DNA from: a virus
Taxonomy: Duplodnaviria > Caudoviricetes
Direction: 5' to 3' (one strand)
DNA length: 58,730 bases
IMG/VR virus record: IMGVR_UViG_3300008110_000203
Coordinates: 1-58,730 of that record
Shown here one piece after another: positions 39,293 to 54,905 of this stretch (position 1 is its first letter; the number at the start of each line of letters is the position of its first letter). The notes below the pieces were generated by a model. The model was not told the DNA's origin and ran no database searches. It worked only from the letters and a program-made list of their open reading frames with translations. A program made the position numbers and the translations under genes.

Positions 39293-39296
39293 TGTC

Positions 39297-39815
39297 TTAA
39301 CCCTTTATGGATTTGAGATTGGAAAGATAGTCCGCATTTCTGCGGGCGATATGCTGCCGGTGTCCGGCCGTCTCTGTTGGTTCCGGCTTTTTGCCGTTGC
39401 CTAGTTCTGTCAGGTCTTTGTTCGTGTTTTCTTTGGGTGTCGTCTTCCTCCTAGCTAGTTGGTGAAGGGTGGCGTAAAGCCGTTCAATGCTGCATAAGCT
39501 TTTCCGGGTCTTAAAACACCTAAGGAAAGTTTGCGCAACTAGTGCTGTTTGCTGGTAGTCGTCTCGAGGGCAGATTTTCCGGGCAGTGGAGTAGACTTCC
39601 CCCCAGTCAATCCAGTCTGCTGGCAGAATCGGCAATTCGCCAGATAGTTCCAAGTCTAAAAGTCTGCCGATATGTTCCCCCTTTCGTAAGTCAGGTCGGT
39701 TGCAGTTCCCCGGTCTGCCACATTCATCGACCGTCGGCAGGGGAAGTCTACACTCTTTCCCCCTCCCACACAACGGAAAGCAAAACATTTCCCGAAACAG
39801 AGAAAAAACGTTCAC
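39297..39815 (-). CDS. hypothetical protein
   Basis: 172-aa ORF adjacent to the downstream ORF. Confidence 0.45.
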   Translation of the reverse strand: MNVFSLFREMFCFPLCGRGKECRLPLPTVDECGRPGNCNRPDLRKGEHIGRLLDLELSGELPILPADWIDWGEVYSTARKICPRDDYQQTALVAQTFLRCFKTRKSLCSIERLYATLHQLARRKTTPKENTNKDLTELGNGKKPEPTETAGHRQHIARRNADYLSNLKSIKG

Positions 39816-39899
39816 TATGGGTGTGCGTTTGTCACCCGTAGGGGTGACACCCGGCCTTACGGGTTACGTGCGCGGTCGGCGAGGGAAACCCGAGCGGCT

Positions 39900-39988
39900 G
39901 CCCAGAAAGCGGGACGCCTAAGAGGCCGGTCGGAAAGCGGATGCGTAACGCGTCGCCCAGAAAGCGGATGCGTAACGCAGAAAGCAGG
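39900..39988 (+). promoter_or_regulatory. array leader with four CRGAAAGCRG boxes
   Basis: Boxes at about 39903, 39931, 39958 and 39978; GAAAGCGGATGCGTAACGC occurs twice. Confidence 0.6.
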
Positions 39989-40058
39989 TCGTTTGCAGTA
40001 TGGTCCCGGCGACGCTGTGTCGCCGGGTTTTTGTGTTCCAGTAGGGAGCTTTGTTATG
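39973..40058 (+). repeat. cassette repeat A1 (box, hairpin with U-tract, SD hairpin, start codon)
   Basis: TAACGCAGAAAGCAGGTC...GCAGT...CCCGGCGACGCTGTGTCGCCGGGTTTTT...TTCC-N5-GGAG...ATG. Confidence 0.95.
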
Positions 40059-40640
40059 GGAACAGATGATTCTGGACGGCTTTTGGGTTGTGCGGTCGAA
40101 ATGGCCCTCCTCAAGCGCGATCAAAAGGACCGGTTGTCATGGTCGGCGGGGTATACCAACCGCGTTACGGTCATCGGCCCCAACAACCTCGTTACAGGAG
40201 GCTACGACACCTTTTACACGAGCAGCGAGCAGATGTTGCGCCGCAACCTCGGGCCGCTTTCGGAACGGTTGTCGGCTGCGGAAGTTGACATGTGCGTGTT
40301 GCCCCTGTGTGATAGGAAACGCCACCTGCTTACTGCCGACGGGTTTCCCGGGAAACACGTACTGAGATCCCTGCATCGTGAACCTGGGGCCGATGCGAGT
40401 TTTTGCGCAGCCGATTTGGTGGACACCACTGACTCTGCGGTGATGGACAACTTCTGGCTTAACGCCCGGAACAAACTCCGCGAGCGTTACAAGTGGTCGC
40501 AGGGCCAGTTCACAATGATTGACGCACTGGACGGGGTGTACGACGAGCCGACTAAGGGCACCCCTTATGTGTGCGTTTTTAGGAGTAGCGGGCGTTTGTC
40601 TACCCTCGTTCGGTCTAAATCCATTCTGATCATCAAGTGA
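40056..40640 (+). CDS. cassette gene, hypothetical (paralogue of the next gene)
   Basis: ATG at the end of A1; MGTDDSG... Confidence 0.8.
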   Translation: MGTDDSGRLLGCAVEMALLKRDQKDRLSWSAGYTNRVTVIGPNNLVTGGYDTFYTSSEQMLRRNLGPLSERLSAAEVDMCVLPLCDRKRHLLTADGFPGKHVLRSLHREPGADASFCAADLVDTTDSAVMDNFWLNARNKLRERYKWSQGQFTMIDALDGVYDEPTKGTPYVCVFRSSGRLSTLVRSKSILIIK

Positions 40641-40648
40641 CTCGTGGC

Positions 40649-40706
40649 CGTGTAAGGCGAGCGTGTGATAGACAGCCGCTGCGGCGGCTGTCGTTCGTGT
40701 GCTTTC
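40649..40706 (+). repeat. cassette repeat B1
   Basis: 58 bp identical to 41562-41619; hairpin GACAGCCGC-TGCG-GCGGCTGTC. Confidence 0.95.
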
Positions 40707-40736
40707 CGTTTTTGTGTTCCAGTAGGGAGCTTTGTT

Positions 40737-41264
40737 ATGTCCGAGGAAACTGAGGCGTGCCCGTTTACGGAGCGATGGGGCGTCAACCGGATCAAAATGG
40801 CCCGTAAGGGGTATACGCTCATCGTCACCATGATCGGGCCTAAAAGCCTGATCAAAGACGGGGTAGATTCAATCTACGTGAAGAACGGTAGCGATATGAT
40901 GGACTGGCTTAAGGACTACCACCCTACCGTCCACCACAGCCCGGCGGCGCGTGAGGCACAGGGGGTGACCGTCTCTTACGAACACCTCGACGCCTTTACC
41001 GGCCCGAACGTTCGGCCCATCGACGACGCGATCCTGATCTGGCGTCTGGTGGATTTCAACAACCCAGACGCTAAGGGTAATCCGTGGGTAACCATGCAGA
41101 ACGCCTTGAGGGAGCGTTTTGGGTGGACCAACGGCCACTTTACGTCGATCGAGTCTCTTACAGGGGTTGACTACAGCGCCCCTGAAGACGCCGTGTATGG
41201 GGTCAGGTTCCGTAAGGAGCACATCAAGGGTGCGGAAACGAAAAACCTGCTGATCCTCTGCTAA
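40737..41264 (+). CDS. cassette gene, hypothetical (paralogue of the previous gene)
   Basis: MSEETEAC...; its TAA stop is the first codon of repeat A2. Confidence 0.8.
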   Translation: MSEETEACPFTERWGVNRIKMARKGYTLIVTMIGPKSLIKDGVDSIYVKNGSDMMDWLKDYHPTVHHSPAAREAQGVTVSYEHLDAFTGPNVRPIDDAILIWRLVDFNNPDAKGNPWVTMQNALRERFGWTNGHFTSIESLTGVDYSAPEDAVYGVRFRKEHIKGAETKNLLILC

Positions 41265-41347
41265 CGCGGAAAGCAGGTCTTCGGCAGTTCTTCCCGGCGA
41301 CGCTGTGTCGCCGGGTTTTTTGCGGTTCCATTATGGAGTTTGTCATG
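41262..41347 (+). repeat. cassette repeat A2
   Basis: Same consensus as A1. Confidence 0.95.
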
Positions 41348-41557
41348 GCAACGTTGACCCCAGCTTACGGACGTGATTACACGAGGGCAGACGCAGCCCG
41401 CGAGGCATTTCTCGCGGGTAAAGATTTCATCTTTAACGAGGTCGGCAGTCGCTGGGATGGAAAGCCCTGTTCGATCCGTGACTTCAAGGCGGACGAAACG
41501 CCCAGCGTGACGATCCGCTACAACCACCTCAGATCGTCGATCGTCGTCGATCTGTGA
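41345..41557 (+). CDS. cassette gene, small phage protein (TLTPAYGRDY...GKDF)
   Basis: ATG at the end of A2. Confidence 0.8.
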   Translation: MATLTPAYGRDYTRADAAREAFLAGKDFIFNEVGSRWDGKPCSIRDFKADETPSVTIRYNHLRSSIVVDL

Positions 41558-41561
41558 CGTG

Positions 41562-41619
41562 CGTGTAAGGCGAGCGTGTGATAGACAGCCGCTGCGGCGG
41601 CTGTCGTTCGTGTGCTTTC
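41562..41619 (+). repeat. cassette repeat B2
   Basis: Identical to B1; followed by TTCCACTAAGGAG and ATG. Confidence 0.95.
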
Positions 41620-41639
41620 TTTCCACTAAGGAGAAACCA

Positions 41640-42242
41640 ATGTGTGAGTACTGGGCTGATAAAGACGGGTGCGTGACGTACTGCGACGGCGATGCTGGTG
41701 CTGACGTGGCCAACCACGAGGGTGTGGCCCGCCAGCACGCGGCGCGTAACGTGGCGGATGCGTTGCAGTCTTTGAGCGGCGACGAACCTCTGGTGGACGC
41801 CATCAACCGTGTGTTTACGGACCACATCAATCACGATGGGGTTCTGGATTGTACCGCTTTGCGTTGCGATTTAGGAAACCTCGACGAATTCGCTGGCGAT
41901 GAAACCCCGGTTGAGGCGATCACGCGCCTTACGGGGCTGCCTGAGCTGGAGGTTCGGTTTGCGCTGCAGGCCGAACCCACTGACGAGGACGTGAGGCTCT
42001 ACGCGATGCGTGTGTGGGGTTGGCACCGCATCGTGTGCAAAGGCTCGTTTTATACGATTGAGAGCTGGAAAGTGTCCCGCTCTCTTATCAAGATGATGTA
42101 CTACGTGATCGGCGAGATTGAGGACGAATGCGGCGTTACCTCGCCTACGTGGACGTGGTACGTGAGGGGTAACGGGAGGCGGTTTGAGATCGCCAACGCG
42201 GACATGGAGGCTGGGATTATCCCCCGCGCTGAGGTGTCCTAA
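41640..42242 (+). CDS. cassette gene, hypothetical
   Basis: MCEYWAD...; its stop starts A3. Confidence 0.8.
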   Translation: MCEYWADKDGCVTYCDGDAGADVANHEGVARQHAARNVADALQSLSGDEPLVDAINRVFTDHINHDGVLDCTALRCDLGNLDEFAGDETPVEAITRLTGLPELEVRFALQAEPTDEDVRLYAMRVWGWHRIVCKGSFYTIESWKVSRSLIKMMYYVIGEIEDECGVTSPTWTWYVRGNGRRFEIANADMEAGIIPRAEVS

Positions 42243-42324
42243 CGCGGAAAGCAGGTTGTTTGCAGTATGTCCCGGCGGCACTGTGTCGCCGGGTTTTTGT
42301 GATTCCATTATGGAGTTTGTTATG
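42240..42324 (+). repeat. cassette repeat A3
   Basis: Same consensus; stem variant CCCGGCGGCA. Confidence 0.95.
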
Positions 42325-42618
42325 GGTCTGGGAAAAAAACCGCTTCCTAAGGTGGAATACGTCACCGGAGACTACCGGTTGGTTTCAAACGATGCCACGC
42401 GTGTTGTGGGCAGGCGGGGGCAGGATGAGATGGGCTATGGCCTTGCCATCACCACGGGCATCGTGCTGCAGTTCGCCGAAACGAAGCGAAAGCATCATGT
42501 GTATTGCACGTGCTTTAGCAACATCGGGTCGCTGTGGATCAAGGTGAAGGGCAAACGCCTTTACTTGGGCACCGTGTTTAGCAGTGACCTCAAAGAAACC
42601 TTTTATGCGGGAGACTGA
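42322..42618 (+). CDS. cassette gene, hypothetical
   Basis: MGLGKKPLP...VYCTCFSNIGSLWI. Confidence 0.8.
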   Translation: MGLGKKPLPKVEYVTGDYRLVSNDATRVVGRRGQDEMGYGLAITTGIVLQFAETKRKHHVYCTCFSNIGSLWIKVKGKRLYLGTVFSSDLKETFYAGD

Positions 42619-42619
42619 T

Positions 42620-42892
42620 GTGTCCGAGAAGCAAGAGATTACGCTGCACTTCCCACACCTCCCGCACTACGTGAGGGCAGTAGCGACAATCGTCAAAGAT
42701 GAATTCGAGCGGGAGGGTGGGGGCGTATCGGTAACGGTATACTCAGACATACACGTCCCTAAAGAGACCAAGATGGACATGGGCTGGTCATACCACTTTT
42801 TCCGCGATCGCCGTAACGAGTTCATGTCTGATGTTGCGGGCTTTATGATCAAGATTTATGGTCTGACGCCCATGCCTACGCGGTACTGGTGA
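42620..42892 (+). CDS. cassette gene, hypothetical
   Basis: GTG start after GGGAG; its TGA starts A4. Confidence 0.7.
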   Translation: MSEKQEITLHFPHLPHYVRAVATIVKDEFEREGGGVSVTVYSDIHVPKETKMDMGWSYHFFRDRRNEFMSDVAGFMIKIYGLTPMPTRYW

Positions 42893-42975
42893 CGCGGAAA
42901 GCAGGTCGTTTGCAGTCTCTCCCGGCGACGTTGTGTCGCCGGGTTTTTTGCGGTTCCATTATGGAGTTTGTCATG
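42890..42975 (+). repeat. cassette repeat A4
   Basis: Same consensus; 3' half identical to A2. Confidence 0.95.
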
Positions 42976-43278
42976 GATCTCAATAACGTAGAGTTCCCCG
43001 AGCGGTTCGTTAGGACAGCGGGTGAGTGGTACGGCGGGCAGGGCTGCATCCTGTACGCGGTGAGTTCTACGGGCGGTCTCACCCGTGGCAGCATCAGGCC
43101 GGACTTGTGCGATGATGACGGGAACTACACGCCCGCTACGGATGAGGCGTGGATCAGATACTTGTGGGACGAGCTGGACATCACGCCGAGTTCTGCTGTA
43201 CTGGAAGTGCGCTCGGTGCGGGCGTTACGTGAGTGCCACAGGGTCCGCCATTCAGGAGTCGGGGATTCCGCTGTGTGA
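42973..43278 (+). CDS. cassette gene, possibly chimeric or frameshifted
   Basis: MDLNNVEFP...; an alternative frame to 43345 encodes a Zn-ribbon-like tail. Confidence 0.6.
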   Translation: MDLNNVEFPERFVRTAGEWYGGQGCILYAVSSTGGLTRGSIRPDLCDDDGNYTPATDEAWIRYLWDELDITPSSAVLEVRSVRALRECHRVRHSGVGDSAV

Positions 43279-43322
43279 ATGCGCTGAAACCTCGTATGAC
43301 ATGGTGTACGTTGGCGTCAGCG

Positions 43323-43410
43323 TAAAGCGGAAAGCAGGTCGGTAGCAGTCTTTCCCGGCGACGTCGTGTCGCCGGGTTTTTGTTTTGTTCTACTAAGGAG
43401 CTTCGTTGTG
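43323..43410 (+). repeat. cassette repeat A5
   Basis: TAAAGCGGAAAGCAGGTCGGTAGCAGT...hairpin...TTCTACTAAGGAG...GTG. Confidence 0.93.
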
Positions 43411-43974
43411 GGATCGTACTTGTTTCAAACCTTGTTTGCGATGAACAACCAGGGTACGGTTAAGGAGTTGCTTGAAGGGGCGTGTGACGGGGGTGAAGCC
43501 TCGCACGGACTTGCGAAAGTCGAGATGTGCTACTCAGGAACCCTGTCTTACGAGCACGTAAGGTTCACGGTTGCAGACGGGCACGTCACCTTCCGAGGGA
43601 AGCGTCGTAAGATAGAGCGACAGCCCGGCGGTGAGTTTATCCGCCAGCCCAACGAGAGCATGGACGACTTCTGGGAAAAAGCCCTCAAGTTTGCGAAAGC
43701 GGAATACAAAAAATTTCGGCAGCATGACACGCGACACCCATCTCACACAGCGTCTATGGTCCTGTCGAGCACGGAACGGTTTTTCCCCGAGCTAAAGACG
43801 CACGGGGTGGAGGGGTTTGCCCTCGATGCGGGTGGGCGTGATGGCCTGACATACCTCAACACTGGCGATACGTACCAGAGGACGATCCTGTTCAGGTCAA
43901 AATCAGAGCGTATGTGGCTCGGAAGTTGGGGTGACTTTGTTGAGAGTAACCCGAAGCTGTGCGGTAACGGGTAG
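43408..43974 (+). CDS. cassette gene, hypothetical
   Basis: GTG at the end of A5; C-terminal HGVE...YLNTGDTY...SWGDFVE. Confidence 0.8.
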   Translation: MGSYLFQTLFAMNNQGTVKELLEGACDGGEASHGLAKVEMCYSGTLSYEHVRFTVADGHVTFRGKRRKIERQPGGEFIRQPNESMDDFWEKALKFAKAEYKKFRQHDTRHPSHTASMVLSSTERFFPELKTHGVEGFALDAGGRDGLTYLNTGDTYQRTILFRSKSERMWLGSWGDFVESNPKLCGNG

Positions 43975-43977
43975 CGT

Positions 43978-44067
43978 TTACGCAGAAAGCAGGTCGTTTG
44001 CAGTAGGTTCCCGGCGACGCTGTGTCGCCGGGTTTTTTGTTGTCGTTCCATGAAGGAGTTTGCCATG
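43978..44067 (+). repeat. cassette repeat A6
   Basis: Same consensus; 3' half shared with A8. Confidence 0.95.
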
Positions 44068-44631
44068 TACATGGTTGGTTTCTACGGTCGTCCTATCGGT
44101 TCCGACGGGGTTGTGCGTTGGATCTACACGCACATCAACAACAATCCAGAGAAGTTTGCTGAACGAGACTGCCCTGACGACGATCCGGCGATGCTGGAGA
44201 TTTATTCCAGGTATGAACACATCTCCGGGTTCACGAGCGTTTCTCACGCTCGTTACGTGCTGGTATCCCTCGCGGACGACAAGAAAGTTCTCGAGAAGGT
44301 TGAGCCGTCCGTGATGTTTGTTGTGAACGATGCAGGAGACGGGCGTGCTTGGTCCGAGAGCGACCGCCGGCAGGGCATTCAACCGTTGGACCGCGTCGTA
44401 CGGTGGCCGGCTCGGTACAGCGCCGATAGGCCCCTCGACGCCCGGTTTTGGGTGGCTGTGGTTGTTAGGAGTTTCCTCCCGAACACCCGGATTGACGACG
44501 ACTGGGAGGCCATGCTGCTCGCCCTCGACTACCTGTTTGAGATGCGGGAGAAAGACCCAAAGTTAGACAAAATCTGTGGCCGCTCGGGGTTGCCCGGGTA
44601 CGCCTTGCAACCGATACAGTTGCTCGTCTAA
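44065..44631 (+). CDS. cassette gene, hypothetical
   Basis: MYMVGFYG...; its stop starts A7. Confidence 0.8.
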   Translation: MYMVGFYGRPIGSDGVVRWIYTHINNNPEKFAERDCPDDDPAMLEIYSRYEHISGFTSVSHARYVLVSLADDKKVLEKVEPSVMFVVNDAGDGRAWSESDRRQGIQPLDRVVRWPARYSADRPLDARFWVAVVVRSFLPNTRIDDDWEAMLLALDYLFEMREKDPKLDKICGRSGLPGYALQPIQLLV

Positions 44632-44719
44632 CGCGGAAAGCAGGTCCTCGGCAGTATGTTCCCGGCGACGTTGTGTCGCCGGGTTTTTTGCAATTCCATT
44701 ATGGAGTTCCCTCGCTATG
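44629..44719 (+). repeat. cassette repeat A7
   Basis: Same consensus. Confidence 0.95.
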
Positions 44720-45364
44720 TCAGAACATCTCATCGTAAGTATTGGCAGTGATTATTGTGAGAACCCAGCAGAGTCTGGATGCAACTGGCGGTTGATTAGC
44801 TACAGCACGCGGCACGCCGCTTTCGAGCACCCGGACAAGCTGTTTAATGTCACCCGTGAAAACGGCTGGCTCGTGTTCAACCCCCGCGAACTGGGCTTGC
44901 GACGCCGCCTCGACGTGGGGCTGGCGTTTCACTTGTCCTACTACGAACACGGCCTGTGTAGCTGGTTCCGTAAAGGCAACGGTCGGCCCGGCACAAACTG
45001 TCGGTTCGATGGCGTTACCTACGCCGGCCTGCTGGTGTTCGAGCACGGACCTGCCGCCATCGGCTCTAAGACGTACGCTGAACGAGCGGCGGACGCTGAC
45101 AGGTTCCTCGAGCAGTACACCGACTGGTGTAACGGGAACGGGCTGTCTGTCGATGTCCGCACTAACACCGGCGAATACGTCGATGGGGGTTGCGGCGGGT
45201 ACTACGGCAGCGACTACAAGACCGCGGTCAACGACGCCGTAGGGGTTGTCTCTGACCTGATCGCGCAGGGTATGCCGTGGACTGTGTCCCCGGAGTCTCT
45301 GCACGAGTACGAACTCAATGCAGCCCTCAGGAAATTGTTCCCAACGCAGGAGTACAAGGCATGA
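44717..45364 (+). CDS. cassette gene, hypothetical
   Basis: MSEHLIVS...YTDWCNG...GCGGYYG. Confidence 0.8.
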   Translation: MSEHLIVSIGSDYCENPAESGCNWRLISYSTRHAAFEHPDKLFNVTRENGWLVFNPRELGLRRRLDVGLAFHLSYYEHGLCSWFRKGNGRPGTNCRFDGVTYAGLLVFEHGPAAIGSKTYAERAADADRFLEQYTDWCNGNGLSVDVRTNTGEYVDGGCGGYYGSDYKTAVNDAVGVVSDLIAQGMPWTVSPESLHEYELNAALRKLFPTQEYKA

Positions 45365-45576
45365 TTTCCTTCCGGGTAGGCGAGAAAGTGTGGGTGGGGC
45401 CTAACCGCACGCGGGTTGGAGAGCCCGGCTACTACGGCACCGTGACAGCGGTGCATGCCGCAACGAGCGGGCGGTTTGTGTTTAGTGTCCGGCCAGACGA
45501 CACCCCAGACATTCTGCGACTGGTAAGTCTACACCACCTTAGGGGTATTCCAAAACACGAGGAGAACGAGTCATGA
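45361..45576 (+). CDS. small SH3/KOW-like beta protein
   Basis: MISFRVGEKVWV...GTVTAVH; ATGA coupling. Confidence 0.65.
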   Translation: MISFRVGEKVWVGPNRTRVGEPGYYGTVTAVHAATSGRFVFSVRPDDTPDILRLVSLHHLRGIPKHEENES

Positions 45577-45800
45577 GTGAGCAGCGTAAATCCCCTGCAG
45601 TAGGCGAGCGTGTACGCGTTCGGCCCTACACAGTACCGGGTCATGAACAGCCCGCGTATTCCGGGACTGTGGGTCACGTTCACGGGCCCGATGAGGCGGG
45701 TCGTTACTTGGTAGGTTTGGACCGATGCTCTGGCGATAGGGGGCAGTCGCGGGTGGAGTGGTTGCATTTTATCTCAGGATATGAAGGGCACAGATCATGA
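45573..45800 (+). CDS. small SH3/KOW-like beta protein
   Basis: AVGERVRV...GTVGHVH; GAGGAG SD; ATGA coupling. Confidence 0.65.
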   Translation: MSEQRKSPAVGERVRVRPYTVPGHEQPAYSGTVGHVHGPDEAGRYLVGLDRCSGDRGQSRVEWLHFISGYEGHRS

Positions 45801-46270
45801 ATAGTGAGAAGAAACCCAGCACTGTACGTGTGAAGTGCTACGACGCCGGTGATGGTGTCTTAGACAGGTACGTAGTGTTCTTTTCCGGTAGCACGCGGAG
45901 GTGGTGTTCGAGTTCGGTGGCCATGTCTTCGAACCCTCACCACCCGCAAGGGTTTTGGTGTTCAGCAGGGAACTCAACTATCGGCAAACACCTCGGAAAA
46001 CGGGTCGCGTTTAGTGAATTGCCGGAGGCGTGTCAAACAGCGGTATGCCAGTACCTCGTACTCAATGTCGCAAGCACCGCGGTTCTTGCCCCCCACGTCA
46101 TTGACGCCTGCGGGATCAAACGATTCTGCGTGGGGCGCATAGACCAGCGTCCAGTGTACGGAAACAAACGCCGGCGATGGTTCGCTACCGAAGATCAGGC
46201 GGAACAGTTCTTGGGCACTCTCCCGGAGGCCGACGTGGCTGCCGGGCTGTACTATCTCGAGAGGAGGTGA
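45797..46270 (+). CDS. hypothetical protein
   Basis: YDAG...DRYVV...PHHPQGF...HLGKRVAFSELP. Confidence 0.75.
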   Translation: MNSEKKPSTVRVKCYDAGDGVLDRYVVFFSGSTRRWCSSSVAMSSNPHHPQGFWCSAGNSTIGKHLGKRVAFSELPEACQTAVCQYLVLNVASTAVLAPHVIDACGIKRFCVGRIDQRPVYGNKRRRWFATEDQAEQFLGTLPEADVAAGLYYLERR

Positions 46271-46274
46271 TTCT

Positions 46275-46595
46275 GTGGAAGGTCTTGAGTGTTACGTAAT
46301 TCAGATGGACTTTAAGGCCTTGAAAGGCCTTGAGGATAGCCTCAAACCGGTGTTTTTCAAACGGTTCAAGGGCGAAGACATTGACAACGGTCCGACAGAA
46401 CTCGGCGACATAACGCAAGCACACCGCTTTGCGACGGCTGGCAATGCGGTGTCAACAGTGCGTCGATTGTTGAACAACCCGTCAGTGTGCAATGACACGC
46501 TGGACTCTTACGAGATCTCTATTCGCAAGCTGGTGTGTGGGGTTGCAATGTCCGCACGTTTGTCGGACGACGGTCGAGTTTCACTCTTTGGATGA
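46275..46595 (+). CDS. hypothetical protein
   Basis: GTG after GGAGG. Confidence 0.65.
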   Translation: MEGLECYVIQMDFKALKGLEDSLKPVFFKRFKGEDIDNGPTELGDITQAHRFATAGNAVSTVRRLLNNPSVCNDTLDSYEISIRKLVCGVAMSARLSDDGRVSLFG

Positions 46596-46601
46596 AAGGC
46601 G

Positions 46602-46835
46602 GTGCGTGTGAGAACTTTTGACGAAGAGTTGTTTGACGAGCGTGTAAATGAGGCCGAACATGAAGCACGCGAACTGTTCGAAGCGATCACTACGCTGGCG
46701 GACCCCGAGTGTTACGCGAAAGAGGACAGCCGGCTGGGTCAAATCGCAGAAGTTATGGGCGGGTTGGTGAGTTTGACGACCGCGGTTCGCAAACTCGTCC
46801 GAGCCGGACGCATAACGCAGAAAGCAGGTCGGTAG
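46602..46835 (+). CDS. hypothetical acidic protein (reads into repeat A8)
   Basis: 77 aa; ends ITQKAGR inside the repeat. Confidence 0.6.
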   Translation: MRVRTFDEELFDERVNEAEHEARELFEAITTLADPECYAKEDSRLGQIAEVMGGLVSLTTAVRKLVRAGRITQKAGR

Positions 46836-46902
46836 CAGTATGTTCCCGGCGACGCTGTGTCGCCGGGTTTTTTGTTGTCGTTCCATGAAGGAGTTTGTTA
46901 TG
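46813..46902 (+). repeat. cassette repeat A8
   Basis: 5' half like A5, 3' half like A6. Confidence 0.95.
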
Positions 46903-47514
46903 TCAGATCACCACGCAATCACACTCACCCCTCCCATGCTGGCCCACGCAAAGGCCTACGCTTGGGCCCACCATGTCAGCACCATTCTCGTGCCCGATAT
47001 GCGGACCGTTTGTGAGAATTTCCTCGGCAAGAAGGTGCTCAAGGTGGATGGCACGTTCGGTAAGGCGTTTACCGGCATGGTAAACGATGCGGTGAGGGAC
47101 AACGTGACTAACCTCCCGCATGTCGATAAGGAGCGACCGGACGACCCGAACACTACCCGGTTTGTCCGGGCACTGCTGCGGTTCTGGAGGTCGGGTGCTG
47201 GCTGTGGTTCAATATACCTGCACGTGACAGCCACAGCCCACGCCGGCGGTGAAGGCGGTCGGTTCGACCACAATGAGTACAACATCTGCGAGACGCGGCT
47301 CGGGGCCGTTACGCATCTTACGCTCTCTGAGATTGAGTGCAATGTGTCTCCTCTTAACAACCCAGCGAGGGAGGGGCGGCTGGCCACGCCGCTGCTCGAG
47401 AAGCAGTTGGCCGACTACAACGCCGCAGTCGCGGAGTTTGAGGCGATGCGGGAGCGTGTTGATGGGCTGCGTCACGACATCAAGCACCTGCTTTTTGGCA
47501 ACAGCAAGTGGTGA
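46900..47514 (+). CDS. cassette gene, hypothetical
   Basis: MSDHHAIT... Confidence 0.8.
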   Translation: MSDHHAITLTPPMLAHAKAYAWAHHVSTILVPDMRTVCENFLGKKVLKVDGTFGKAFTGMVNDAVRDNVTNLPHVDKERPDDPNTTRFVRALLRFWRSGAGCGSIYLHVTATAHAGGEGGRFDHNEYNICETRLGAVTHLTLSEIECNVSPLNNPAREGRLATPLLEKQLADYNAAVAEFEAMRERVDGLRHDIKHLLFGNSKW

Positions 47515-47543
47515 TGCGGGTGGTGATGCGGGTGGTTTATGTG

Positions 47544-47602
47544 CCCGGCGACACGGTGTCGCCGGGTTTTTTGTTGGTGTTCCAATAAGGAAACGCGTCG
47601 TG
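47544..47602 (+). repeat. partial cassette repeat A9 (hairpin and SD part only)
   Basis: CCCGGCGACACGGTGTCGCCGGGTTTTTT...TTCCAATAAGGAA...GTG; preceded by a tandem 12-mer. Confidence 0.9.
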
Positions 47603-47911
47603 GGAAAACAAACGTTCTTTAACGTGGTCGATGAGCCACATGTTGGGGTCCGAATTGTGGTTGTCGGATACAACTCATGGGGTGCGGGCGGTACTCGAAG
47701 TGAGGCCCTGAAAAACTGGCGGAGGAACGCCCCTCAGGGCGCTCGGGTTGACAAGACCGCCACATACGTAGCCATCGACGAGCGGGTGCTCACCCGCGGC
47801 GACATGCCCGACAACAACTGGGCGGACGTAGATGACCGCAACGCCGCGTGGATCAGCATTGATGACATGGGTCGGGTAAAGATCCGCCACTGCATCGTGA
47901 TCAGGCATTGA
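47600..47911 (+). CDS. cassette gene, hypothetical
   Basis: GTG at the end of A9; NSWGAGGTRSEALKN. Confidence 0.7.
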   Translation: MGKQTFFNVVDEPHVGVRIVVVGYNSWGAGGTRSEALKNWRRNAPQGARVDKTATYVAIDERVLTRGDMPDNNWADVDDRNAAWISIDDMGRVKIRHCIVIRH

Positions 47912-47936
47912 CCGGGTTCAACTGTTTTTGTAGAAT
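47908..47936 (+). promoter_or_regulatory. sigma70-like promoter for csrA
   Basis: TTGACC-17 bp-TAGAAT, followed by hairpin GTGCCGGC/GCCGGCAC (47944-47965) and AAGGAG. Confidence 0.7.
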
Positions 47937-47988
47937 GTCCAATGTGCCGGCGTGTTTGCCGGCACGATTCTTTACGAAGGAGAATGTC

Positions 47989-48171
47989 ATGTTAGTGTTG
48001 AAGCGCAAGCGGGGCGAAAAGATCAGCATCGTGGTTAAGGTTCCGGGGTCCGACACCCCGATCACGATAACGTTGCTGACCCACCTGATAAGCAAAGGCA
48101 GCGTGTCGTTGGGCTTTGAGGCACCTCGCAAATCGGTAACGATCATTCGCAACGAGATCGCGAAGCAGTAA
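47989..48171 (+). CDS. csrA: CsrA/RsmA-family RNA-binding protein homologue
   Basis: MLVLKRKRGEKISI...ITITLL...VSLGFEAP..VTIIRNEI matches the CsrA pattern MLxLxR..GE.I.I...V.LG..AP....I.R.E. Confidence 0.85.
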   Translation: MLVLKRKRGEKISIVVKVPGSDTPITITLLTHLISKGSVSLGFEAPRKSVTIIRNEIAKQ

Positions 48172-48214
48172 ACTCGCGACGTGTTGATTCTTTCACCCAT
48201 TATGGAGAGCTATT

Positions 48215-48997
48215 ATGGCTGGCGTAGTGTTCTATGAAGGTCCCTCAGCGATCGACGGCAAGCCTATCGTTGCGATAGCGACCACCGGCACTCGCAACAA
48301 GAAGACCGGACCCTTGGTCCAGACGTGGATTCTGAGAGCGGATGTGAGCCCGGTGAATGCCATCAACACTGGTGCTGACAGTAGCGTGTGCGGTTCCTGC
48401 CCTTTGCGGGGGATCATCGCCAACAGTACCCGGGTCAAGAGGAAGAAAGTCAACCGGTTCAGGTCCTGCTATGTGCGGGTTGGTCAGGCACCGAACCAAA
48501 TCTGGAAGGCTTACCGACGCGGTGCTTACCCGACACTCGACGCCCTGTCACCGGCCATGAGGCGGGCTCTGAGGAACAGCCTGCTTCGGCGTGGGTCTTA
48601 CGGTGACCCAGTCGCCGTACCTCGGGCAGCGTGGGACGCCTTGGCGGAGTTGGTCAAACCCGGCAAGCACCCGGGTTACACGCACCAGTGGGACAGTCCG
48701 GCAGCCGCCGGCTGGCAGACGGACCTGATGGCCAGCGTGCAGACGCTGGATGAGCGGGCCCGAGCTGTCGCCGCAGGGTGGCGTACGTTCCGCATCGTCA
48801 AGAGCGTGGACGAGCTGCAGGACGGCGAGATCCTGTGTCCGGCCAGCCCTGAGGCGGGCAGCACAAAGACCTGCGAACAGTGCGGTGCGTGCAACGGTCG
48901 GCGTGACAGCCGAGACCTCCGGCACTCGGTCGCTATCCCCGGGCACGGGTCGCGGTTTGCCGTGCTGCCCAGTCTGCTGCGACTGTTCGACAATTGA
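48215..48997 (+). CDS. Cys-rich phage protein (GP88-like, putative Fe-S or metal binding)
   Basis: NKKTG, CGSCP, CYV, R.GSYGD, YTHQW, CPA...TCEQCGAC; RBS CCATTATGGAG matches the repeat A tail. Confidence 0.65.
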   Translation: MAGVVFYEGPSAIDGKPIVAIATTGTRNKKTGPLVQTWILRADVSPVNAINTGADSSVCGSCPLRGIIANSTRVKRKKVNRFRSCYVRVGQAPNQIWKAYRRGAYPTLDALSPAMRRALRNSLLRRGSYGDPVAVPRAAWDALAELVKPGKHPGYTHQWDSPAAAGWQTDLMASVQTLDERARAVAAGWRTFRIVKSVDELQDGEILCPASPEAGSTKTCEQCGACNGRRDSRDLRHSVAIPGHGSRFAVLPSLLRLFDN

Positions 48998-49010
48998 CGT
49001 GGTTTTATCT

Positions 49011-49038
49011 GGCGGGGGCGAATGCCCCCGCCTTTCTT
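49011..49038 (+). terminator. intergenic hairpin with T-rich tail
   Basis: GGCGGGGGC-GAAT-GCCCCCGCC-TTTCTT. Confidence 0.7.
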
Positions 49039-49062
49039 GTGTCCATTTCTTTGGAGATCGAT

Positions 49063-49578
49063 ATGCAAACGAGCATACTCACAATCCGCAACGAGCCCCG
49101 GCTTGGTGAGAACGTACCACGAACGTTTCGCCCCTTTGAAGGGGGACCACCTCGCGACGTCGAGGAGGTCATTATTCGTAAGGAATTTTGTTTTACCAAC
49201 CCTTCTGTGGTAGCAGAGGCAGGTGTAGAGCTGCAATTCTCTGTGGTCTTGCAGTCCCTCCGCAAAAACGGAAGGCCCGAGGTTGTACGCCCATATAGTC
49301 GGATGCATGACCCCCGCGAAATCGAGAAGGACAGGCTGGTGTTTATCCACGCAGATTACTTCTACGACTTTGTGCTGCGGTGGCTTCTTGCCTGCGAGTA
49401 TCGCCTCGCCAACGCTTCTCGGACGACGCAACCCACACTTTGTACAATCCCGTACGACACGGATATTGCCACCAAGGACCGAGAGCTGCATGACGCCGTG
49501 ATTTTCGTTCGTCGGTTCATCACCGACACGCAACGCCACATGAAAGCCCTTGGACTGGAGGTGTCGATTGGATTCTAA
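49063..49578 (+). CDS. hypothetical protein
   Basis: MQTSILT... after TGGAG. Confidence 0.7.
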   Translation: MQTSILTIRNEPRLGENVPRTFRPFEGGPPRDVEEVIIRKEFCFTNPSVVAEAGVELQFSVVLQSLRKNGRPEVVRPYSRMHDPREIEKDRLVFIHADYFYDFVLRWLLACEYRLANASRTTQPTLCTIPYDTDIATKDRELHDAVIFVRRFITDTQRHMKALGLEVSIGF

Positions 49579-49652
49579 GCGGGTCGCCGAAGCGTTTTGC
49601 GTAGCCGTATGGCTGTTCCTTGTTTTGTTTGTCATCTTTAAGTGAGGTCCTC

Positions 49653-50171
49653 ATGTCTCTGCGAACATCAGACCCCCCTGTCTACGTGCCACCGGAAGGG
49701 CCGGAGAAAGCCCCCTTCTTCGTTCAGGTCCTGCCTGTTGGGTTTTTTGCCTGGCAAGCGGCGTACGTTGTTTCCTATACGATAGATGACTATCGATTGC
49801 GACAGCTCGAATTGCGGGACAGAGGAACCCCTGCTGGGGAAGTGTATTGCCGACTTGGTGTGCCCCTCCCACCGGCAGTTAGCGAGGACTCGAAGGTCAT
49901 CGTGCGGCGTGTCGATGGGCCTCTGTCGTTGGCGGCTTTGGACCACGAAGCCGCTTACGCTTGGCTCGATCGACTCACTCGGGGCCAGTTGATTGATTGT
50001 CTGGCGGGTTGTCTCGAGCTTTTGAAGGGGTCGAAAGAGCCTCTGTCTGAGCAATTCGTGGCCAATCAGATGCACGACGTACTCCGCAGACGGGCAGAGT
50101 ACAACAAGACCGGCGTACAAACAGTCTTAAAAGACCATTCCGAATTCATCAGCGGGGGGGCCTATCAGTGA
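49653..50171 (+). CDS. hypothetical protein
   Basis: MSLRTSD... after GAGG. Confidence 0.65.
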   Translation: MSLRTSDPPVYVPPEGPEKAPFFVQVLPVGFFAWQAAYVVSYTIDDYRLRQLELRDRGTPAGEVYCRLGVPLPPAVSEDSKVIVRRVDGPLSLAALDHEAAYAWLDRLTRGQLIDCLAGCLELLKGSKEPLSEQFVANQMHDVLRRRAEYNKTGVQTVLKDHSEFISGGAYQ

Positions 50172-50365
50172 CAGAGATGAGCTTTTATGGGTTCATACTA
50201 ATGGCGGTTGTGGCGTTTGCGGTGCTCGTGTGGGGCACCCATCACGAACTTAAGACAGGAGGCGACTTCAGTGGAGTGTCTGAATTGGACCCATGCGATG
50301 GTGGCGGTGATCTCAGCAGTCGCGACCTTACTGGCGGTGGTGATTGTGACTATTTGCCTGGATAG
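50168..50365 (+). CDS. small membrane protein with an acidic/Gly tail
   Basis: N-terminal TM helix; GTGA coupling. Confidence 0.55.
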   Translation: MTEMSFYGFILMAVVAFAVLVWGTHHELKTGGDFSGVSELDPCDGGGDLSSRDLTGGGDCDYLPG

Positions 50366-50466
50366 GTGGTTGCCATGAGAGAGCATGTCATCTTGGTGTG
50401 TCTCCTGTTGCTGCTGTGGTACATCTCACCCCGTCTGCCTCCCCGCCTGCCCCCAACGAGGTTGTC

Positions 50467-50928
50467 ATGAGAAAACCTTACCCGTGTAGATGGAACTGTT
50501 TCGCCACCGGAGTTGAGAACGCTATTCCGGTGCGATGGGAGGTGCTGCTGAACCGCATCAGCCGGCAATGGTTTGTGCGGAAGGTGATGCAGTTTCCTTG
50601 GGGTGAAACGCCCGGCAAGTCTATTCCGGTCAACCCGGGCACTGGCCGGTCGTGTCACGCTGCGACCGTGAAGAGAGAGAGCCTTCAGTCGGCATACCCC
50701 TCCATGTTCGGAGGGGGGCCTCCGGTACCAGACAGCACACCAGACATCGCTCCCGTCGTAGACCCGACGTGGTGCGATGGGCGGGTCTGGGAGATGCCGG
50801 CAGTGTACGGACTTCGGCAGGCGCTCATGGCGTACTGCCGAGAACATCATATCCGGGCGACGTTTCCGTCCGGCGGCAAAGCCGCCGGCGTCACCGGCTT
50901 TTATTTTCAAGCTGTAAGGGGTGAGTGA
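50467..50928 (+). CDS. hypothetical protein
   Basis: MRKPYPCRW... after GAGG. Confidence 0.6.
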   Translation: MRKPYPCRWNCFATGVENAIPVRWEVLLNRISRQWFVRKVMQFPWGETPGKSIPVNPGTGRSCHAATVKRESLQSAYPSMFGGGPPVPDSTPDIAPVVDPTWCDGRVWEMPAVYGLRQALMAYCREHHIRATFPSGGKAAGVTGFYFQAVRGE

Positions 50929-51189
50929 ATGGGAGAACGGAACGAGGACCAATTCGACTACTCAAACGTGGTTGTGTCCGACGCCACTCGGCTGGTCAGC
51001 ATCGCGAACCAGCTCGTAAATGTGTCACGCAATGTGGTAGTCCACCACGATGGGGAGAACAAGCACCTGCGGGGCGTCGTGTTTGACACCAGCGGTGTCC
51101 GGTGTGTGCTTGGTGAGGGTGACGGAGGCTCTAACGTGGAGGCTCCTATGGTAGATTGCATGGATTTGCGGGAGGCAAAAGGTGCTTGA
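50929..51189 (+). CDS. hypothetical protein
   Basis: 86 aa; abuts the upstream stop. Confidence 0.6.
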   Translation: MGERNEDQFDYSNVVVSDATRLVSIANQLVNVSRNVVVHHDGENKHLRGVVFDTSGVRCVLGEGDGGSNVEAPMVDCMDLREAKGA

Positions 51190-51424
51190 AATTAGCTTTG
51201 AAATACAACAGACCAGCAAGGGGGCTACGCTACGGACGACGTTCCCAAGCCGAGGCGGTGGGGGTCGCACAACAACGAAGCGGTGGCGAAACACCCCCTA
51301 TAGGGATGCGGTGCATCAGGCCCTTGGTTGGTGCCACACCACCATAGCCAACCTGTTTGATCTCGCTGTTGGTGGCCCGCCAAAGGAAGTTACGTGGACA
51401 ATCCACTACAAGCCGGCTGAGTAG
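51182..51424 (+). CDS. hypothetical protein
   Basis: GTG after GGAGG. Confidence 0.6.
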   Translation: MLEISFEIQQTSKGATLRTTFPSRGGGGRTTTKRWRNTPYRDAVHQALGWCHTTIANLFDLAVGGPPKEVTWTIHYKPAE

Positions 51425-51504
51425 GTCGCGGGGGTGCTTTAAGGTAGTGCGGTACGACAACACCCGCTGCACAGTGCGGCGGGTTTCTCGAAGGAGGAAG
51501 GACA

Positions 51505-51708
51505 ATGCTACAACAGGTGCGGGTAGTGGCGACCGCTGATGGTGTGACACAAGTGCAACAGCGGGTCGGGACGTTTGAGGTTGATGCCTCTGGTGCATTC
51601 TGCGGAGTGCGATGGGCTAAGTGGGAGGCGATGCCGATAGTATTGGTGAGCGAGCTGCTGCCCGATCAGATGGTTGTCAATTCGCTGGGGTTGCAGCACA
51701 GCGGCTGA
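51505..51708 (+). CDS. C-cassette gene, hypothetical
   Basis: Strong AAGGAGG SD; lies between C1 and C2. Confidence 0.7.
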   Translation: MLQQVRVVATADGVTQVQQRVGTFEVDASGAFCGVRWAKWEAMPIVLVSELLPDQMVVNSLGLQHSG

Positions 51709-51768
51709 CACACAGCCCCGCTGCACAGTGCGGCGGGTGTGTTTTTAATCGCTTTGGGGGTCGTGACG

Positions 51769-52215
51769 ATGAAGCCGGGTGATTCTGTGAATGAGGGTGG
51801 CTATTCTGTGTGTGAGTCGTCTTTGGGTGTTGGCAGGTGGAGGATCGAACACTGTGTGGTTGGTGAGATTGTGGCTGATGCTGTGTTTGCGTATGACGTC
51901 AGCAACTTCGCCTCTAAGTTTGTGTTCGCCGAAAATGAACTGTTTGTGCGCTGCCGTGTCCTGTGTCTGAGATTCAGGATTGATGACACTGGTGAGGAAG
52001 TGGATGCCGTTTCGCGCATCAAAATGCTGAAGAATGGCGGAAGTGGAAGAGCAGACGCTGAGCTGAAGGAACTGCTGGAGTCTCTGGTGGCCGACGCCGT
52101 CCAGCGGTTCAACGCGTGCTCTGTGCCGCTGATTTGCCGGCAGGCGTGGGCGTCGCACCCGCGGAATCCGGCGAACGCTCGCCGGGTGGCCCGTGATCCG
52201 GAGACTGGGATCTGA
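51769..52215 (+). CDS. C-cassette gene, hypothetical
   Basis: MKPGDSV...; lies between C2 and C3. Confidence 0.65.
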   Translation: MKPGDSVNEGGYSVCESSLGVGRWRIEHCVVGEIVADAVFAYDVSNFASKFVFAENELFVRCRVLCLRFRIDDTGEEVDAVSRIKMLKNGGSGRADAELKELLESLVADAVQRFNACSVPLICRQAWASHPRNPANARRVARDPETGI

Positions 52216-52271
52216 GTTTCCTTGCTGCGAGTGCGGCGGGGCGTTTTGGAAAACTATCAGAGGGGTAGATA

Positions 52272-52676
52272 ATGAGTGACGCATACGCAACGACCTACCA
52301 TCGAGATCGGACCGTGACTGTGTGGGATGTGTATTCTCAGCAGTGGTTGAGAACAGGCAACCCGAGCGACCGAGTGCTTGCCAGTCTGTCAGGCAGTGAG
52401 CGGCATCGCGTGGTTCTGCACTGCTCGGGCGTACCGGTGCTGACGAATAAATTCACCACGATCGCGACGATAGCCTACAGCGGCAGCGTGAGTGTCAACC
52501 AAAACAGGGCGGCACATGGGGCGGTGTGCCACCTCCAAGCACGCAAAAAGGCTGATGGCCAGCTCGTCGGTCGTCACGTCAACAGCAACGGACGACACCG
52601 CGAGACCGGTAGAGCTTTCCCGCTCGACGTTGACACGCTGGCACAGTGGCAGCGGATGGACCACTGCTCACGCTGA
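52272..52676 (+). CDS. C-cassette gene, hypothetical
   Basis: MSDAYATTYHRD...; lies between C3 and C4. Confidence 0.75.
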   Translation: MSDAYATTYHRDRTVTVWDVYSQQWLRTGNPSDRVLASLSGSERHRVVLHCSGVPVLTNKFTTIATIAYSGSVSVNQNRAAHGAVCHLQARKKADGQLVGRHVNSNGRHRETGRAFPLDVDTLAQWQRMDHCSR

Positions 52677-52729
52677 CCGACAACACAGCCCCGCTGCGAG
52701 TGCGGCGGGGCATTTTGCGAGCAATCATT

Positions 52730-52981
52730 ATGACAACAGCAGCAATGATACCGATGAAGTGGTCAGGCAAAGACACAAACGGCAGCATCGAGCATTGTGT
52801 GTGCTGCGGGCGCAAGCTGACAGGCACGCCGGTGTACGTAGAGGTCATCGACGGCGGCGGGCAGGTCGCTGCTCCCGGCCTCGATCCAGACCAGACCGAT
52901 GCAGGGTATATGGGGTTCTTTCCGGTGGGTCGGCATTGTGCAAAGAAGCATTTTCGAGGATACACGCACGACTCGATTTGA
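52730..52981 (+). CDS. C-cassette gene, small Zn-ribbon protein
   Basis: CVCCGRKL...FPVGRHCAKK; lies between C4 and C5. Confidence 0.75.
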   Translation: MTTAAMIPMKWSGKDTNGSIEHCVCCGRKLTGTPVYVEVIDGGGQVAAPGLDPDQTDAGYMGFFPVGRHCAKKHFRGYTHDSI

Positions 52982-53041
52982 CACAACAACAACACAGCCC
53001 CGCTGCGAGTGCGGCGGGGCCTTTTGCGGGAGGGATCGACC

Positions 53042-53452
53042 ATGATTTGGTGGTGCGGGTATTTCTGCGGCGTAACGACTGCTCTGGTTGTTGCTGCGAT
53101 TGTGTTCTGGGTTGTGGACGAGAGCGTTGAGATGCAAAACTTTGACGATACACAGAGGTCGGCAGGGTGTGGTCAATCTCGAGATGAGTTTGCTGCGTTA
53201 AAGACACTGTGCGATTCATTGGCGGATGAGGTGCATCGGCTGCAGGCTGATCGTGAAAAGTTTCTAACCGAAATGGACACCCTACGCTGTCAGTTAACCG
53301 CATTCAACATCGTCTTACCTGCACCTGCGAAAGGTCCGCCGCCAAGTGGGTGGCGGGCAGTGGCGGCAGGGGATCGCTTGCAGAAAGGGGATACCTACAG
53401 TTGGGGAACACGTGGCTACATCCGCCGGATTGAGGGGCCGGGTGGCGGTTGA
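53042..53452 (+). CDS. C-cassette gene, TM plus coiled-coil protein
   Basis: MIWWCGYFCG...; GGAGG SD. Confidence 0.7.
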   Translation: MIWWCGYFCGVTTALVVAAIVFWVVDESVEMQNFDDTQRSAGCGQSRDEFAALKTLCDSLADEVHRLQADREKFLTEMDTLRCQLTAFNIVLPAPAKGPPPSGWRAVAAGDRLQKGDTYSWGTRGYIRRIEGPGGG

Positions 53453-53459
53453 GTACCCA

Positions 53460-54905
53460 CTACCCGACAGGCTGTTGCTTGCGTTTAGCCTGGGCGTACT
53501 CTCGGAGGACTTGCAGGAGACTTTCCTGCACGTCCTCTTTTTGATCTGTGCGGTCCCAGACGAGGTCGCACACGGTGCCCGTTACACGGGGTCGGTGAAT
53601 CCGCACGGTGCTTGTGACCCCCTGCCTGTAGATGCGGGCATTGAGCTGCAGGTAATCGATCAGGTTATCGGTTGGGCTGGTCCAAATGATGTCGCGGCCA
53701 GAGCCCGCCTGCATGTTCACGCCGAAGCTGAGAGCCGCGGGGTGTACCGCCAGGTACGGGGGGTCCAGCTCGTCCTTGTTCCACCGGTCTACAAGCTTGG
53801 CGACGTCCGCAGCTCGCATCCCCCCTCGAATAGCGTGCAGCTTAGGGATCCTCTTCCGCAGCATCTCCAGCTCGTACGTGTATTGGTACGCGATGAGTGC
53901 CGGCTTTCCTCCAAGCTCTTGCAAGATGCCCATTACGCTGTCCACCACGGTGGTGTGGATCGGGTGGCCGGTCTTGTTCTCGTCGTACAAAAACCCGGCG
54001 GCGATCTGTTTGCATAGCTGGTAACGTGCGCTCGCGTTTGCCGCTGCCCGTATGTTCCCCTCGTCGAGTTCAAGGAACAACTGCTGCTCCATCTCCTCAT
54101 AGGCTTTTGCCGCGTCGCCCTCAAGCTGCAAAGGGATATCGTGAGTGACAAGCTGCGGCATGCTGAGGTAGTCGTTCTTCTCCAGCCTCAGGCACAGCGG
54201 TTGTATCCGCGAGTGGAATTGAGGCAACCTGTCGCTGCGGACATGAAAGCTCTGGCCCCGGCCCGCCGAATGCTCGAAGCAGAAATGGGCCCGGAATTGT
54301 TCCACGGTAGGCCCCAGCGCCTCCCCTTGGTCGAGCATGTATAGCTGCGAGTACAGGTCGGCCAAATTCTTTGGGCTCGGGGTGCCGGTAAGGATCACTC
54401 TGCGTGGGATTTTTGCAATCAGTTTTGCCAGAGCTTTAGTGCGCCGGCTTTCCCAGTTCCGGAAGTTCGTGCTTTCGTCGATGATTATCCCGTGCCACGG
54501 CAGTCTCTTGTGCGTTGCCGTAAGTCTGGCCAACCAGTCTAAGGCGTCGTGGTTGATGATGGCGAGATTTGTAGGAAGGCTCAGGCGTTTGCGTCGAGTC
54601 TGGTCCTGCCCCATACACACTGCGTACGTCAAATGCCGGAAGTTCTGCCACTTCTGGATCTCGTTTGGCCACACGAGATGACAAACTGCCTTCGGTGCGA
54701 CCACCAGAAAGCGAGACGCTACGCCGAACAATATGCAGTCAGACATCCACTGCAGCATGCATGCGGTTTTTCCCATGCCGGGGTCCAGCAGGACGGCTGC
54801 GCCGTCTCCGGGCCGCTGGCTCCACGTCGTTCGGCTGTGTATAAAATTTAGCACAGTCTTTTGATATTCGTGCGGCGTCCACACCGGAGGAGAACAGGAT
54901 TGCAT
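53460..54905 (-). CDS. SNF2-family superfamily 2 helicase
   Basis: LDPGMGKT, IIIDES, LTGTP, FGVNMQ, QLNARIYRQG. Confidence 0.92.
   Translation of the reverse strand: MQSCSPPVWTPHEYQKTVLNFIHSRTTWSQRPGDGAAVLLDPGMGKTACMLQWMSDCILFGVASRFLVVAPKAVCHLVWPNEIQKWQNFRHLTYAVCMGQDQTRRKRLSLPTNLAIINHDALDWLARLTATHKRLPWHGIIIDESTNFRNWESRRTKALAKLIAKIPRRVILTGTPSPKNLADLYSQLYMLDQGEALGPTVEQFRAHFCFEHSAGRGQSFHVRSDRLPQFHSRIQPLCLRLEKNDYLSMPQLVTHDIPLQLEGDAAKAYEEMEQQLFLELDEGNIRAAANASARYQLCKQIAAGFLYDENKTGHPIHTTVVDSVMGILQELGGKPALIAYQYTYELEMLRKRIPKLHAIRGGMRAADVAKLVDRWNKDELDPPYLAVHPAALSFGVNMQAGSGRDIIWTSPTDNLIDYLQLNARIYRQGVTSTVRIHRPRVTGTVCDLVWDRTDQKEDVQESLLQVLREYAQAKRKQQPVG

Follow-up and report, generated by a model that had tools for sequence, protein, structure and literature searches.

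The early accessory region of an uncultured freshwater dsDNA phage carries a csrA gene whose product, judged from its sequence, truly belongs to the CsrA/RsmA family, as a divergent and minimal member. This gene appears to form a self-contained expression unit, with a promoter, a leader hairpin and a Shine-Dalgarno (SD) sequence that are each supported by conservation in a diverged relative. The reading that we favour, with guarded confidence, is an autonomous phage CsrA that would bind GGA/Shine-Dalgarno regions, mainly in host mRNAs.

The window, by which we mean the whole stretch of DNA analysed, is an entire IMG/VR virus record of 58,730 bp with a completeness estimate of 89%. Its minus strand encodes the portal, terminase, primase-helicase, family-A DNA polymerase and helicase, and a plus-strand run of small genes from ~39.9 to 53.4 kb (the accessory/early region) holds csrA. 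The other small genes of this region gave no Pfam match above threshold, and their PHROG matches were weak and to families of unknown function. Near-identical DNA was found in lake and freshwater metagenomes from 14 studies; there were no RNA runs among the sequencing runs containing the locus, the two labelled 'RNA-Seq' being probably DNA. Rfam at gathering thresholds gave no match in the window, and so no Csr/Rsm-type RNA, and no tRNAs were found there. A blastn search of positions 46800-49000 against INPHARED phages was without match, and three terminase relatives (fragments 8-38% complete, which probably do not cover the csrA region) showed no CsrA match. Our comparisons rely on one related phage, G001 (IMG/VR record, 57,551 bp), which was found only via the DNA pattern of the A hairpin described below. 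It is collinear with the window at ~65-77% nucleotide identity (about 68%).

Several features elsewhere in the window were recorded along the way. Two giant minus-strand ORFs, 1106-6619 (1838 aa) and 6658-10005 (1116 aa), have no Pfam or PHROG match. A 501-aa protein encoded at 30709-32211 (minus strand) contains two tandem resolvase N-terminal domains (residues 3-156 and 190-340); C-terminal domains of the large-serine-recombinase kind are not recognisable in it. About ten tandem 20-bp units (GTGTTTACCGGTATTKCCYT) occupy 38124-38323, flanked by the primase-helicase side and by a divergent gene pair on the minus strand, and extra single GTGTTTAC copies lie nearby at 38441-38540. These tandem units resemble iterons or an operator array, and a replication origin is possible.

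The CsrA-family coding sequence occupies positions 47989-48171 on the plus strand (60 aa at 47989-48168, then a TAA stop at 48169-48171). The original prediction had placed the gene at 47908-48171; the true start is the ATG at 47989, and relatives begin at MLVLKR. The longer span is the longest TTG-started frame (87 aa), and its codons 1-27 are promoter and leader. A public gene call, P0001 (78 aa), is over-extended too. Upstream on the same strand lies an ORFan gene of 103 aa with a GTG start (47600-47911), syntenic in G001, whose TGA stop (47909-47911) falls within the csrA -35 hexamer. Downstream, also on the plus strand, a spacer with an A-element remnant and the ribosome-binding site of the next gene (CCCATTATGGAG; 48172-48214) leads into a 260-aa gene of PHROG 2554, function unknown (48215-48997). 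The first strong terminator-like hairpin 3′ of csrA (49011-49032, plus strand) has nine G-C pairs followed by TTTCTTGTGT. Since no terminator lies between them in the window, csrA and the PHROG 2554 gene probably share one transcript that ends at the 49011 terminator. G001 differs here, with a full A element and its terminator 3′ of csrA where the window retains the remnant only.

The 60-aa product had been put forward as a CsrA-pattern protein, and the profile search bore this out: PF02599 matched at 42.7 bits, above its curated gathering threshold of 27 (E 5.6e-11; positions 1-50 of the 53 in the profile), a PF02599 search of the whole record gave 41.7 bits for the same protein, and PHROG 9500, 'CsrA-like regulator', matched at E 4.4e-5. 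The G001 protein (58 aa, 51% identity to that of the window) scores 33.5 bits on PF02599. The NCBIfam equivalog cut-offs were missed by a wide margin (TIGR00202, 33.5 versus 70.1 bits; NF001844, 29.6 versus 106; NF002469, 26.2 versus 73), and functional equivalence with bacterial CsrA is therefore not assured. By these scores the protein is a CsrA/RsmA family member and not an equivalog, an assignment that is sound at superfamily level.

Relatives are few. A word search of 5.8 billion proteins returned three close proteins, and 11 relatives at E≤0.001 were found among 1.84 billion representatives. Neither tblastn of the protein against INPHARED at E≤0.01 nor a scan of viral contigs with the single phage protein as query detected similarity to any phage record or any relative, respectively. 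In the Atlas, the closest clusters (scores 0.86-0.88) are CsrA clusters in which viruses dominate, and we take this as a lead only. A profile built from the 11 relatives matches RsmE (2jpp) at 9.9e-12 and the CsrA structures 1y00, 7yr6 and 1t3o at ~1e-10 (several structures, 1e-11 to 1e-9). Columns L2, L4, R6, G37, L41, P46, V50, R54 and E56 are invariant in these relatives, and strain variants with 98, 90 and 85% identity differ at non-key residues only. Two of the invariant residues, L4 and R54, align to L4 and R44 of RsmE 2jpp; in CsrA, Leu4 (beta1) and Arg44 (beta5) have been named as critical for RNA binding (PMC7652899).

The protein resembles E. coli CsrA and Pseudomonas RsmE and RsmA in its MLxLxR beta1, its ...AP..V.I.R.EI beta5, its five-strand layout and its length of ~60 aa. 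An AlphaFold monomer model has five strands (residues 2-6, 11-16, 25-30, 39-43 and 50-55) and no helix, at a pLDDT of 75.7. Unlike CsrA and RsmE, the phage protein has 7-10 extra residues between strands 2 and 3 (VVKVPGSDTP) and lacks the C-terminal alpha helix, ending six residues past R54, the Arg44 equivalent; it also falls far under the equivalog cut-offs given above. The C-terminal region of CsrA is that used by FliW-type antagonists (PMC7366521). Fold searches with the monomer model did not clearly retrieve CsrA, which is no surprise if the protein folds as a strand-swapped dimer and only one chain is modelled: Foldseek reached E 1.2 at best, with none at E≤0.001 and RsmN (4kji) at rank 2-3 (E 1.6), and the top VIA-align match was an unrelated chain (Z 4.5), 4kji scoring Z 2.8.

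The proposed arrangement upstream of the gene, TTGACC-17-TAGAAT followed by a hairpin and AAGGAG, is present in full and is kept in G001. The -35 hexamer TTGACC (47908-47913, plus strand) reads TTGACA in G001 and the -10 hexamer TAGAAT (47931-47936, plus strand) reads TAGAGT, each 5/6 conserved, and the spacer between them has the same 17-nt length with 11/17 positions identical. The leader stem-loop (47943-47966, plus strand) begins at about the predicted transcript start and can be drawn as 10 pairs, including two G-U, with a tetraloop, or as eight Watson-Crick pairs with a 6-nt loop. It is followed by a small hairpin at 47967-47985 (plus strand), a prediction that would pair anti-SD with SD (AUUCUUU/GGAGAAU) and that is a variant of the TTCC-N5-GGAG module common to the A and B leaders. 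The Shine-Dalgarno sequence AAGGAG (47977-47982, plus strand) lies 6 nt 5′ of the ATG at 47989 and is identical in G001 (6/6). The linkers between these elements are far less alike (2/7 from -10 to hairpin, 4/10 from hairpin to SD and 1/6 from SD to ATG), in contrast to the hairpin, which is identical over 25/25 positions. This 25-mer (47942-47966), loop included, is the third-longest exact match between the two ~58 kb genomes; it occurs once in each of them and in no other IMG/VR record. The csrA leader as a whole folds better than shuffled sequences (z -3.3 to -4.1).

The csrA promoter is the best sigma-70-like match (10/12) among six sites in 37400-54000, and in G001 TTGACA-17-TAGAGT is again the single best, of nine sites in the early region. 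Sites of at least 10/12 are not enriched window-wide (4 versus 1.98±1.46 in 40 shuffles), so the weight of this promoter rests on its position and its conservation in G001. The csrA leader contains one GGA only, within the SD, and multi-site autoregulation of the E. coli type is thus not evident.

A conserved inverted repeat directly behind a -10 hexamer might also be read as a DNA operator, or as the terminator of the upstream array, with csrA expressed only once the block is lifted. The repeat lies at about +1 to +24, a typical operator position. Perfect conservation of the full 25-mer including its loop is what one would expect of sequence-specific recognition more than of a purely structural stem, and in both phages the hairpin was marked as terminator-like (tails ATTCTTTACG and CTTTTCCATT). 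The U-tract is weak, however, no DNA-binding protein is recognisable nearby, and the site is single-copy; moreover, it is invariant in the two diverged sequences on which a covariation analysis would have to draw. We regard this explanation as very unlikely.

The original prediction had also placed csrA at the end of an array of repeated A elements, which is true for the window: the last, degenerate A element lies at 47514-47602 (plus strand; intrinsic terminator 47543-47567), with a TTCC-N5-GGAA ribosome-binding module, and precedes the 103-aa ORFan gene that lies 5′ of csrA. In G001, csrA sits inside the array. There are nine A copies in the window, within 39975-47602 (module ~90 nt), and four full copies in the examined part of G001. 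Each consists of a stop codon, a box ACGCRGAAAGCAGGTC-N4-GCAGT that is conserved with G001, a 10-bp terminator hairpin with a T-run, TTCC-N5-GGAG and an ATG. Contigs from other metagenomes branch at A elements (loose ends at 44628, 44708, 46805 and 46813; also L015 1193-4606), which is compatible with recombination at these repeats and with ambiguous assembly alike. The B element is present in two copies identical over 58 nt (40649-40706 and 41562-41619) and has a different hairpin, GACAGCCGC-TGCG-GCGGCTGTC, in front of a ribosome-binding module of the A kind.

One proposal is that CsrA is a dedicated trans-acting regulator of the repeated leaders, binding the SD-proximal GGA of the A, B and C leaders and switching the translation or stability of all cassette genes together. 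The placement of csrA, within the array in one phage and at its end in the other, speaks for such a role, as does the TTCC/TTCT-N4-6-GGAG/GGAA module common to 12 early genes, csrA included. Every leader carries a GGA within its SD, and a GGA occurs at -20 to -1 in 23/27 early genes compared with 12/26 minus-strand genes, the starts of the latter being those of unrefined longest ORFs. The most specific predictions of the proposal, on the other hand, fail. Outside its SD the A element has a single GGA (in ACGCRGAAAGCAGG), present in five of the nine window copies and in none of the four G001 copies, and we rejected the 5′ box as a CsrA site since its GGA is not conserved. In the copies that have this GGA, its distance from that of the SD is 66-68 nt, which is outside the bridging range of 10-63 nt described for E. 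coli CsrA (PMC7652899). No A or B leader has a second GGA 10-63 nt 5′ of the SD; among early genes generally, 5/27 do, versus 9/26 minus-strand genes. The SD GGAG is predicted to be base-paired and not presented in a loop, and ANGGA motifs in hairpin loops of the early region are at chance level (29 versus 27.1±5.6). The leader at the 5′ end of the array (39860-39990) was considered as a GGA sponge and rejected, as it is not GGA-dense (five GGA per 120 nt, versus a maximum of seven elsewhere; fold z -0.88). CsrA may still bind at the SD GGA in all leaders, but these tests lend such binding no specific support.

The survey of csrA loci bears on the same proposal. Among 77 other viral csrA loci, 58 had no intergenic repeats, 16 had two copies and two had three; an array of at least four copies was found at G001 only (76/77 without), and G001 was likewise the only one of the 77 with A- or C-type hairpins. 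Starting from the cassettes instead of from csrA gives the opposite picture. The C-type hairpin cassette (CCCGCWGCAYAGKGCGGCGGG; 51463-53028 of the window, and L093-L120) is invariant in sequence, and its hairpin is found twice, as exact copies, in the window, seven times in G001 and in 25 IMG/VR records overall, with the same layout in every case (stop codon, ~12 nt, hairpin, U-tract, SD, ATG). A CsrA-family match was found in 20/25 of these records (19/24 without G001), 19 at E≤6.5e-9 and one weak at 0.0017, even though most of the 25 are fragments, 11-57% complete. Four of the five records without CsrA are fragments (11, 12, 14 and 52%); the fifth, G026, is 92% complete. The suggested check of csrA-array co-occurrence thus splits: most csrA loci have no array, whereas records with the C cassette mostly have csrA. 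The possibility that such cassettes commonly occur without csrA is not borne out by these records.

The CsrA region from 11 C-cassette records, with its surroundings in eight, yielded three further CsrA types. Representatives of the three score 65.6, 50.2 and 45.9 bits on PF02599, all above the cut-off, and have N-terminal extensions of 12, 36 and 34 residues before beta1. The extended proteins are encoded at L124 1393-1671 (36 residues), L130 1486-1758 on the minus strand (34) and L126 1465-1668 (12); as the RNA-binding strand of this family is made by its first residues, such extensions are unusual. By their coordinates, the three further types have the C hairpin on the csrA strand, 0.4-3.4 kb upstream of the gene. 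In one of them, at L126 1399-1425 (L122, same range), a hairpin with stem CAGCAGU/ACUGCUG presents GGAUG in its loop ~40 nt 5′ of GGAGGAGG, the ribosome-binding site of that type's csrA. From its sequence this hairpin is a candidate autoregulatory site, and its fold is not better than that of shuffles (z +0.75 in L126 and -0.10 in L122).

Seven C-cassette records compared at the protein level had only 1-3 ORFs in common with the window, mostly in the tail-side region. That the C cassette and csrA, with at least three further CsrA types, are common to several nearly unrelated phages could reflect a shared host, cassette-mediated exchange or a functional link. The co-occurrence speaks for the dedicated leader regulator. 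It may also reflect a shared host, since the genes common with the window lie in the tail-side region, and G026 has the cassette without a CsrA. Weighing these observations with the failed predictions at the A and B leaders, we consider a dedicated leader regulator unlikely.

A related possibility is that CsrA is the protein partner of a mobile stop-hairpin-U-tract-SD cassette and would license or time the translation and stability of all cassette genes, so that this would be a post-transcriptional regulon within the phage and not a hijacking of the host. The C cassette is found in at least five otherwise nearly unrelated freshwater phage lineages, four of which have their own, mutually divergent csrA. 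A role inside the phage accounts better for the co-occurrence in 20/25 records than one directed purely at the host. We nevertheless hold both the partnership and the phage-internal regulon to be quite improbable.

CsrA homologues on phages are already known as a class, and the protein of the window is a new divergent member among the mobile-element homologues. A survey of 2517 phage genomes reported csrA in 30, some of them from phages whose hosts have no csrA (PMC7366521, Sobrero and Valverde 2020). Knock-down of csrA (gp28) in the E. coli phage PTXU04 led to smaller plaques, and its authors describe what CsrA does in a phage life cycle as previously untested (PMC11879866). In the Burkholderia phages JC1 (gp47) and CSP3 (orf23), csrA is reported near the capsid gene (PMC9144972, PMC10269572). 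The gene studied here resembles these homologues as a small CsrA-family gene on a tailed phage. Its position is different from that in JC1, where csrA lies between the portal and capsid genes and not in an early accessory array, and its own conserved promoter and leader hairpin set it apart from the known phage homologues. For the plasmid pQBR103, RsmQ is reported to exert global translational control of the host, with experimental evidence for binding and proteome effects (PMC9928087). Like RsmQ, the phage protein is a divergent CsrA homologue on a mobile element, for which RsmQ is a model of action on host mRNAs; unlike RsmQ, its carrier is a phage and not a plasmid. Within limited, open-access text, we found no literature that deals with this subfamily of proteins or describes a phage csrA with a promoter-hairpin leader.

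The array itself invites comparison with two known kinds of phage module. T4-type PeSL (promoter-early stem-loop) cassettes are short repeated regulatory modules beside small accessory genes, and lambdoid 'morons' are autonomous promoter-gene(-terminator) units inside a phage operon. In contrast to both, the A module consists of a stop codon, a box, a terminator and a ribosome-binding site, without a recognisable promoter; only csrA has a sigma-70-type promoter here.

The csrA unit alone could still be a moron, expressed from the prophage and altering host physiology to the benefit of the lysogen (lysogenic conversion). It has its own promoter, and in G001 a terminator stands directly behind the gene, which is the classic moron layout; in the window, by contrast, there is no terminator after csrA until 49011. 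A precedent exists in the csrA of the Bcep22-like phage JC1, which has been called a moron (PMC9144972). The 501-aa protein with two resolvase domains at 30709-32211 might suggest a capacity for lysogeny, but no recognisable large-serine or tyrosine integrase and no repressor were found, the other early proteins being ORFans. Furthermore, csrA lies on the strand of the early array and in its block, and one genome-contig scan for a related prophage or host clue produced no related prophage, only a single distant match (44% identity) in a MAG. A moron acting in a lysogen is, in our assessment, distinctly unlikely.

We therefore return to an autonomous CsrA directed mainly at host mRNAs. A sigma-70-type promoter would start the transcript at the foot of the invariant stem-loop, whose most likely task is to stabilise the 5′ end, and which may in addition reduce read-through out of the upstream array. 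The short anti-SD/SD hairpin and AAGGAG would then drive csrA translation. From its homologues, the protein is expected to assemble as an interleaved dimer and to recognise GGA, within or close to Shine-Dalgarno sequences, through its beta1/beta5 surfaces. That it dimerises and binds RNA, which targets it has and what the hairpin does are points that we infer. The most likely role is a post-transcriptional takeover or retuning of host mRNAs; feedback on the SD of csrA itself is probable, and any effect on the GGAG-type early ribosome-binding sites of the phage would be a side effect and not a dedicated circuit. Hijacking of a host Csr regulon, as originally suggested, draws its plausibility from analogy only, and it may be that the host has no Csr system at all.

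Phage-borne CsrA has been catalogued since 2020, and the one functional datum that we found on what it does for a phage is the plaque-size defect reported for PTXU04 (PMC11879866). The locus described here is a compact test case, with a 60-aa minimal CsrA, a conserved promoter, a strict hairpin and near-identical candidate target leaders adjoining. The association between the cassette and csrA, if it survives correction for shared host and ancestry, would tie modular gene cassettes of phages to a global regulator of RNA.
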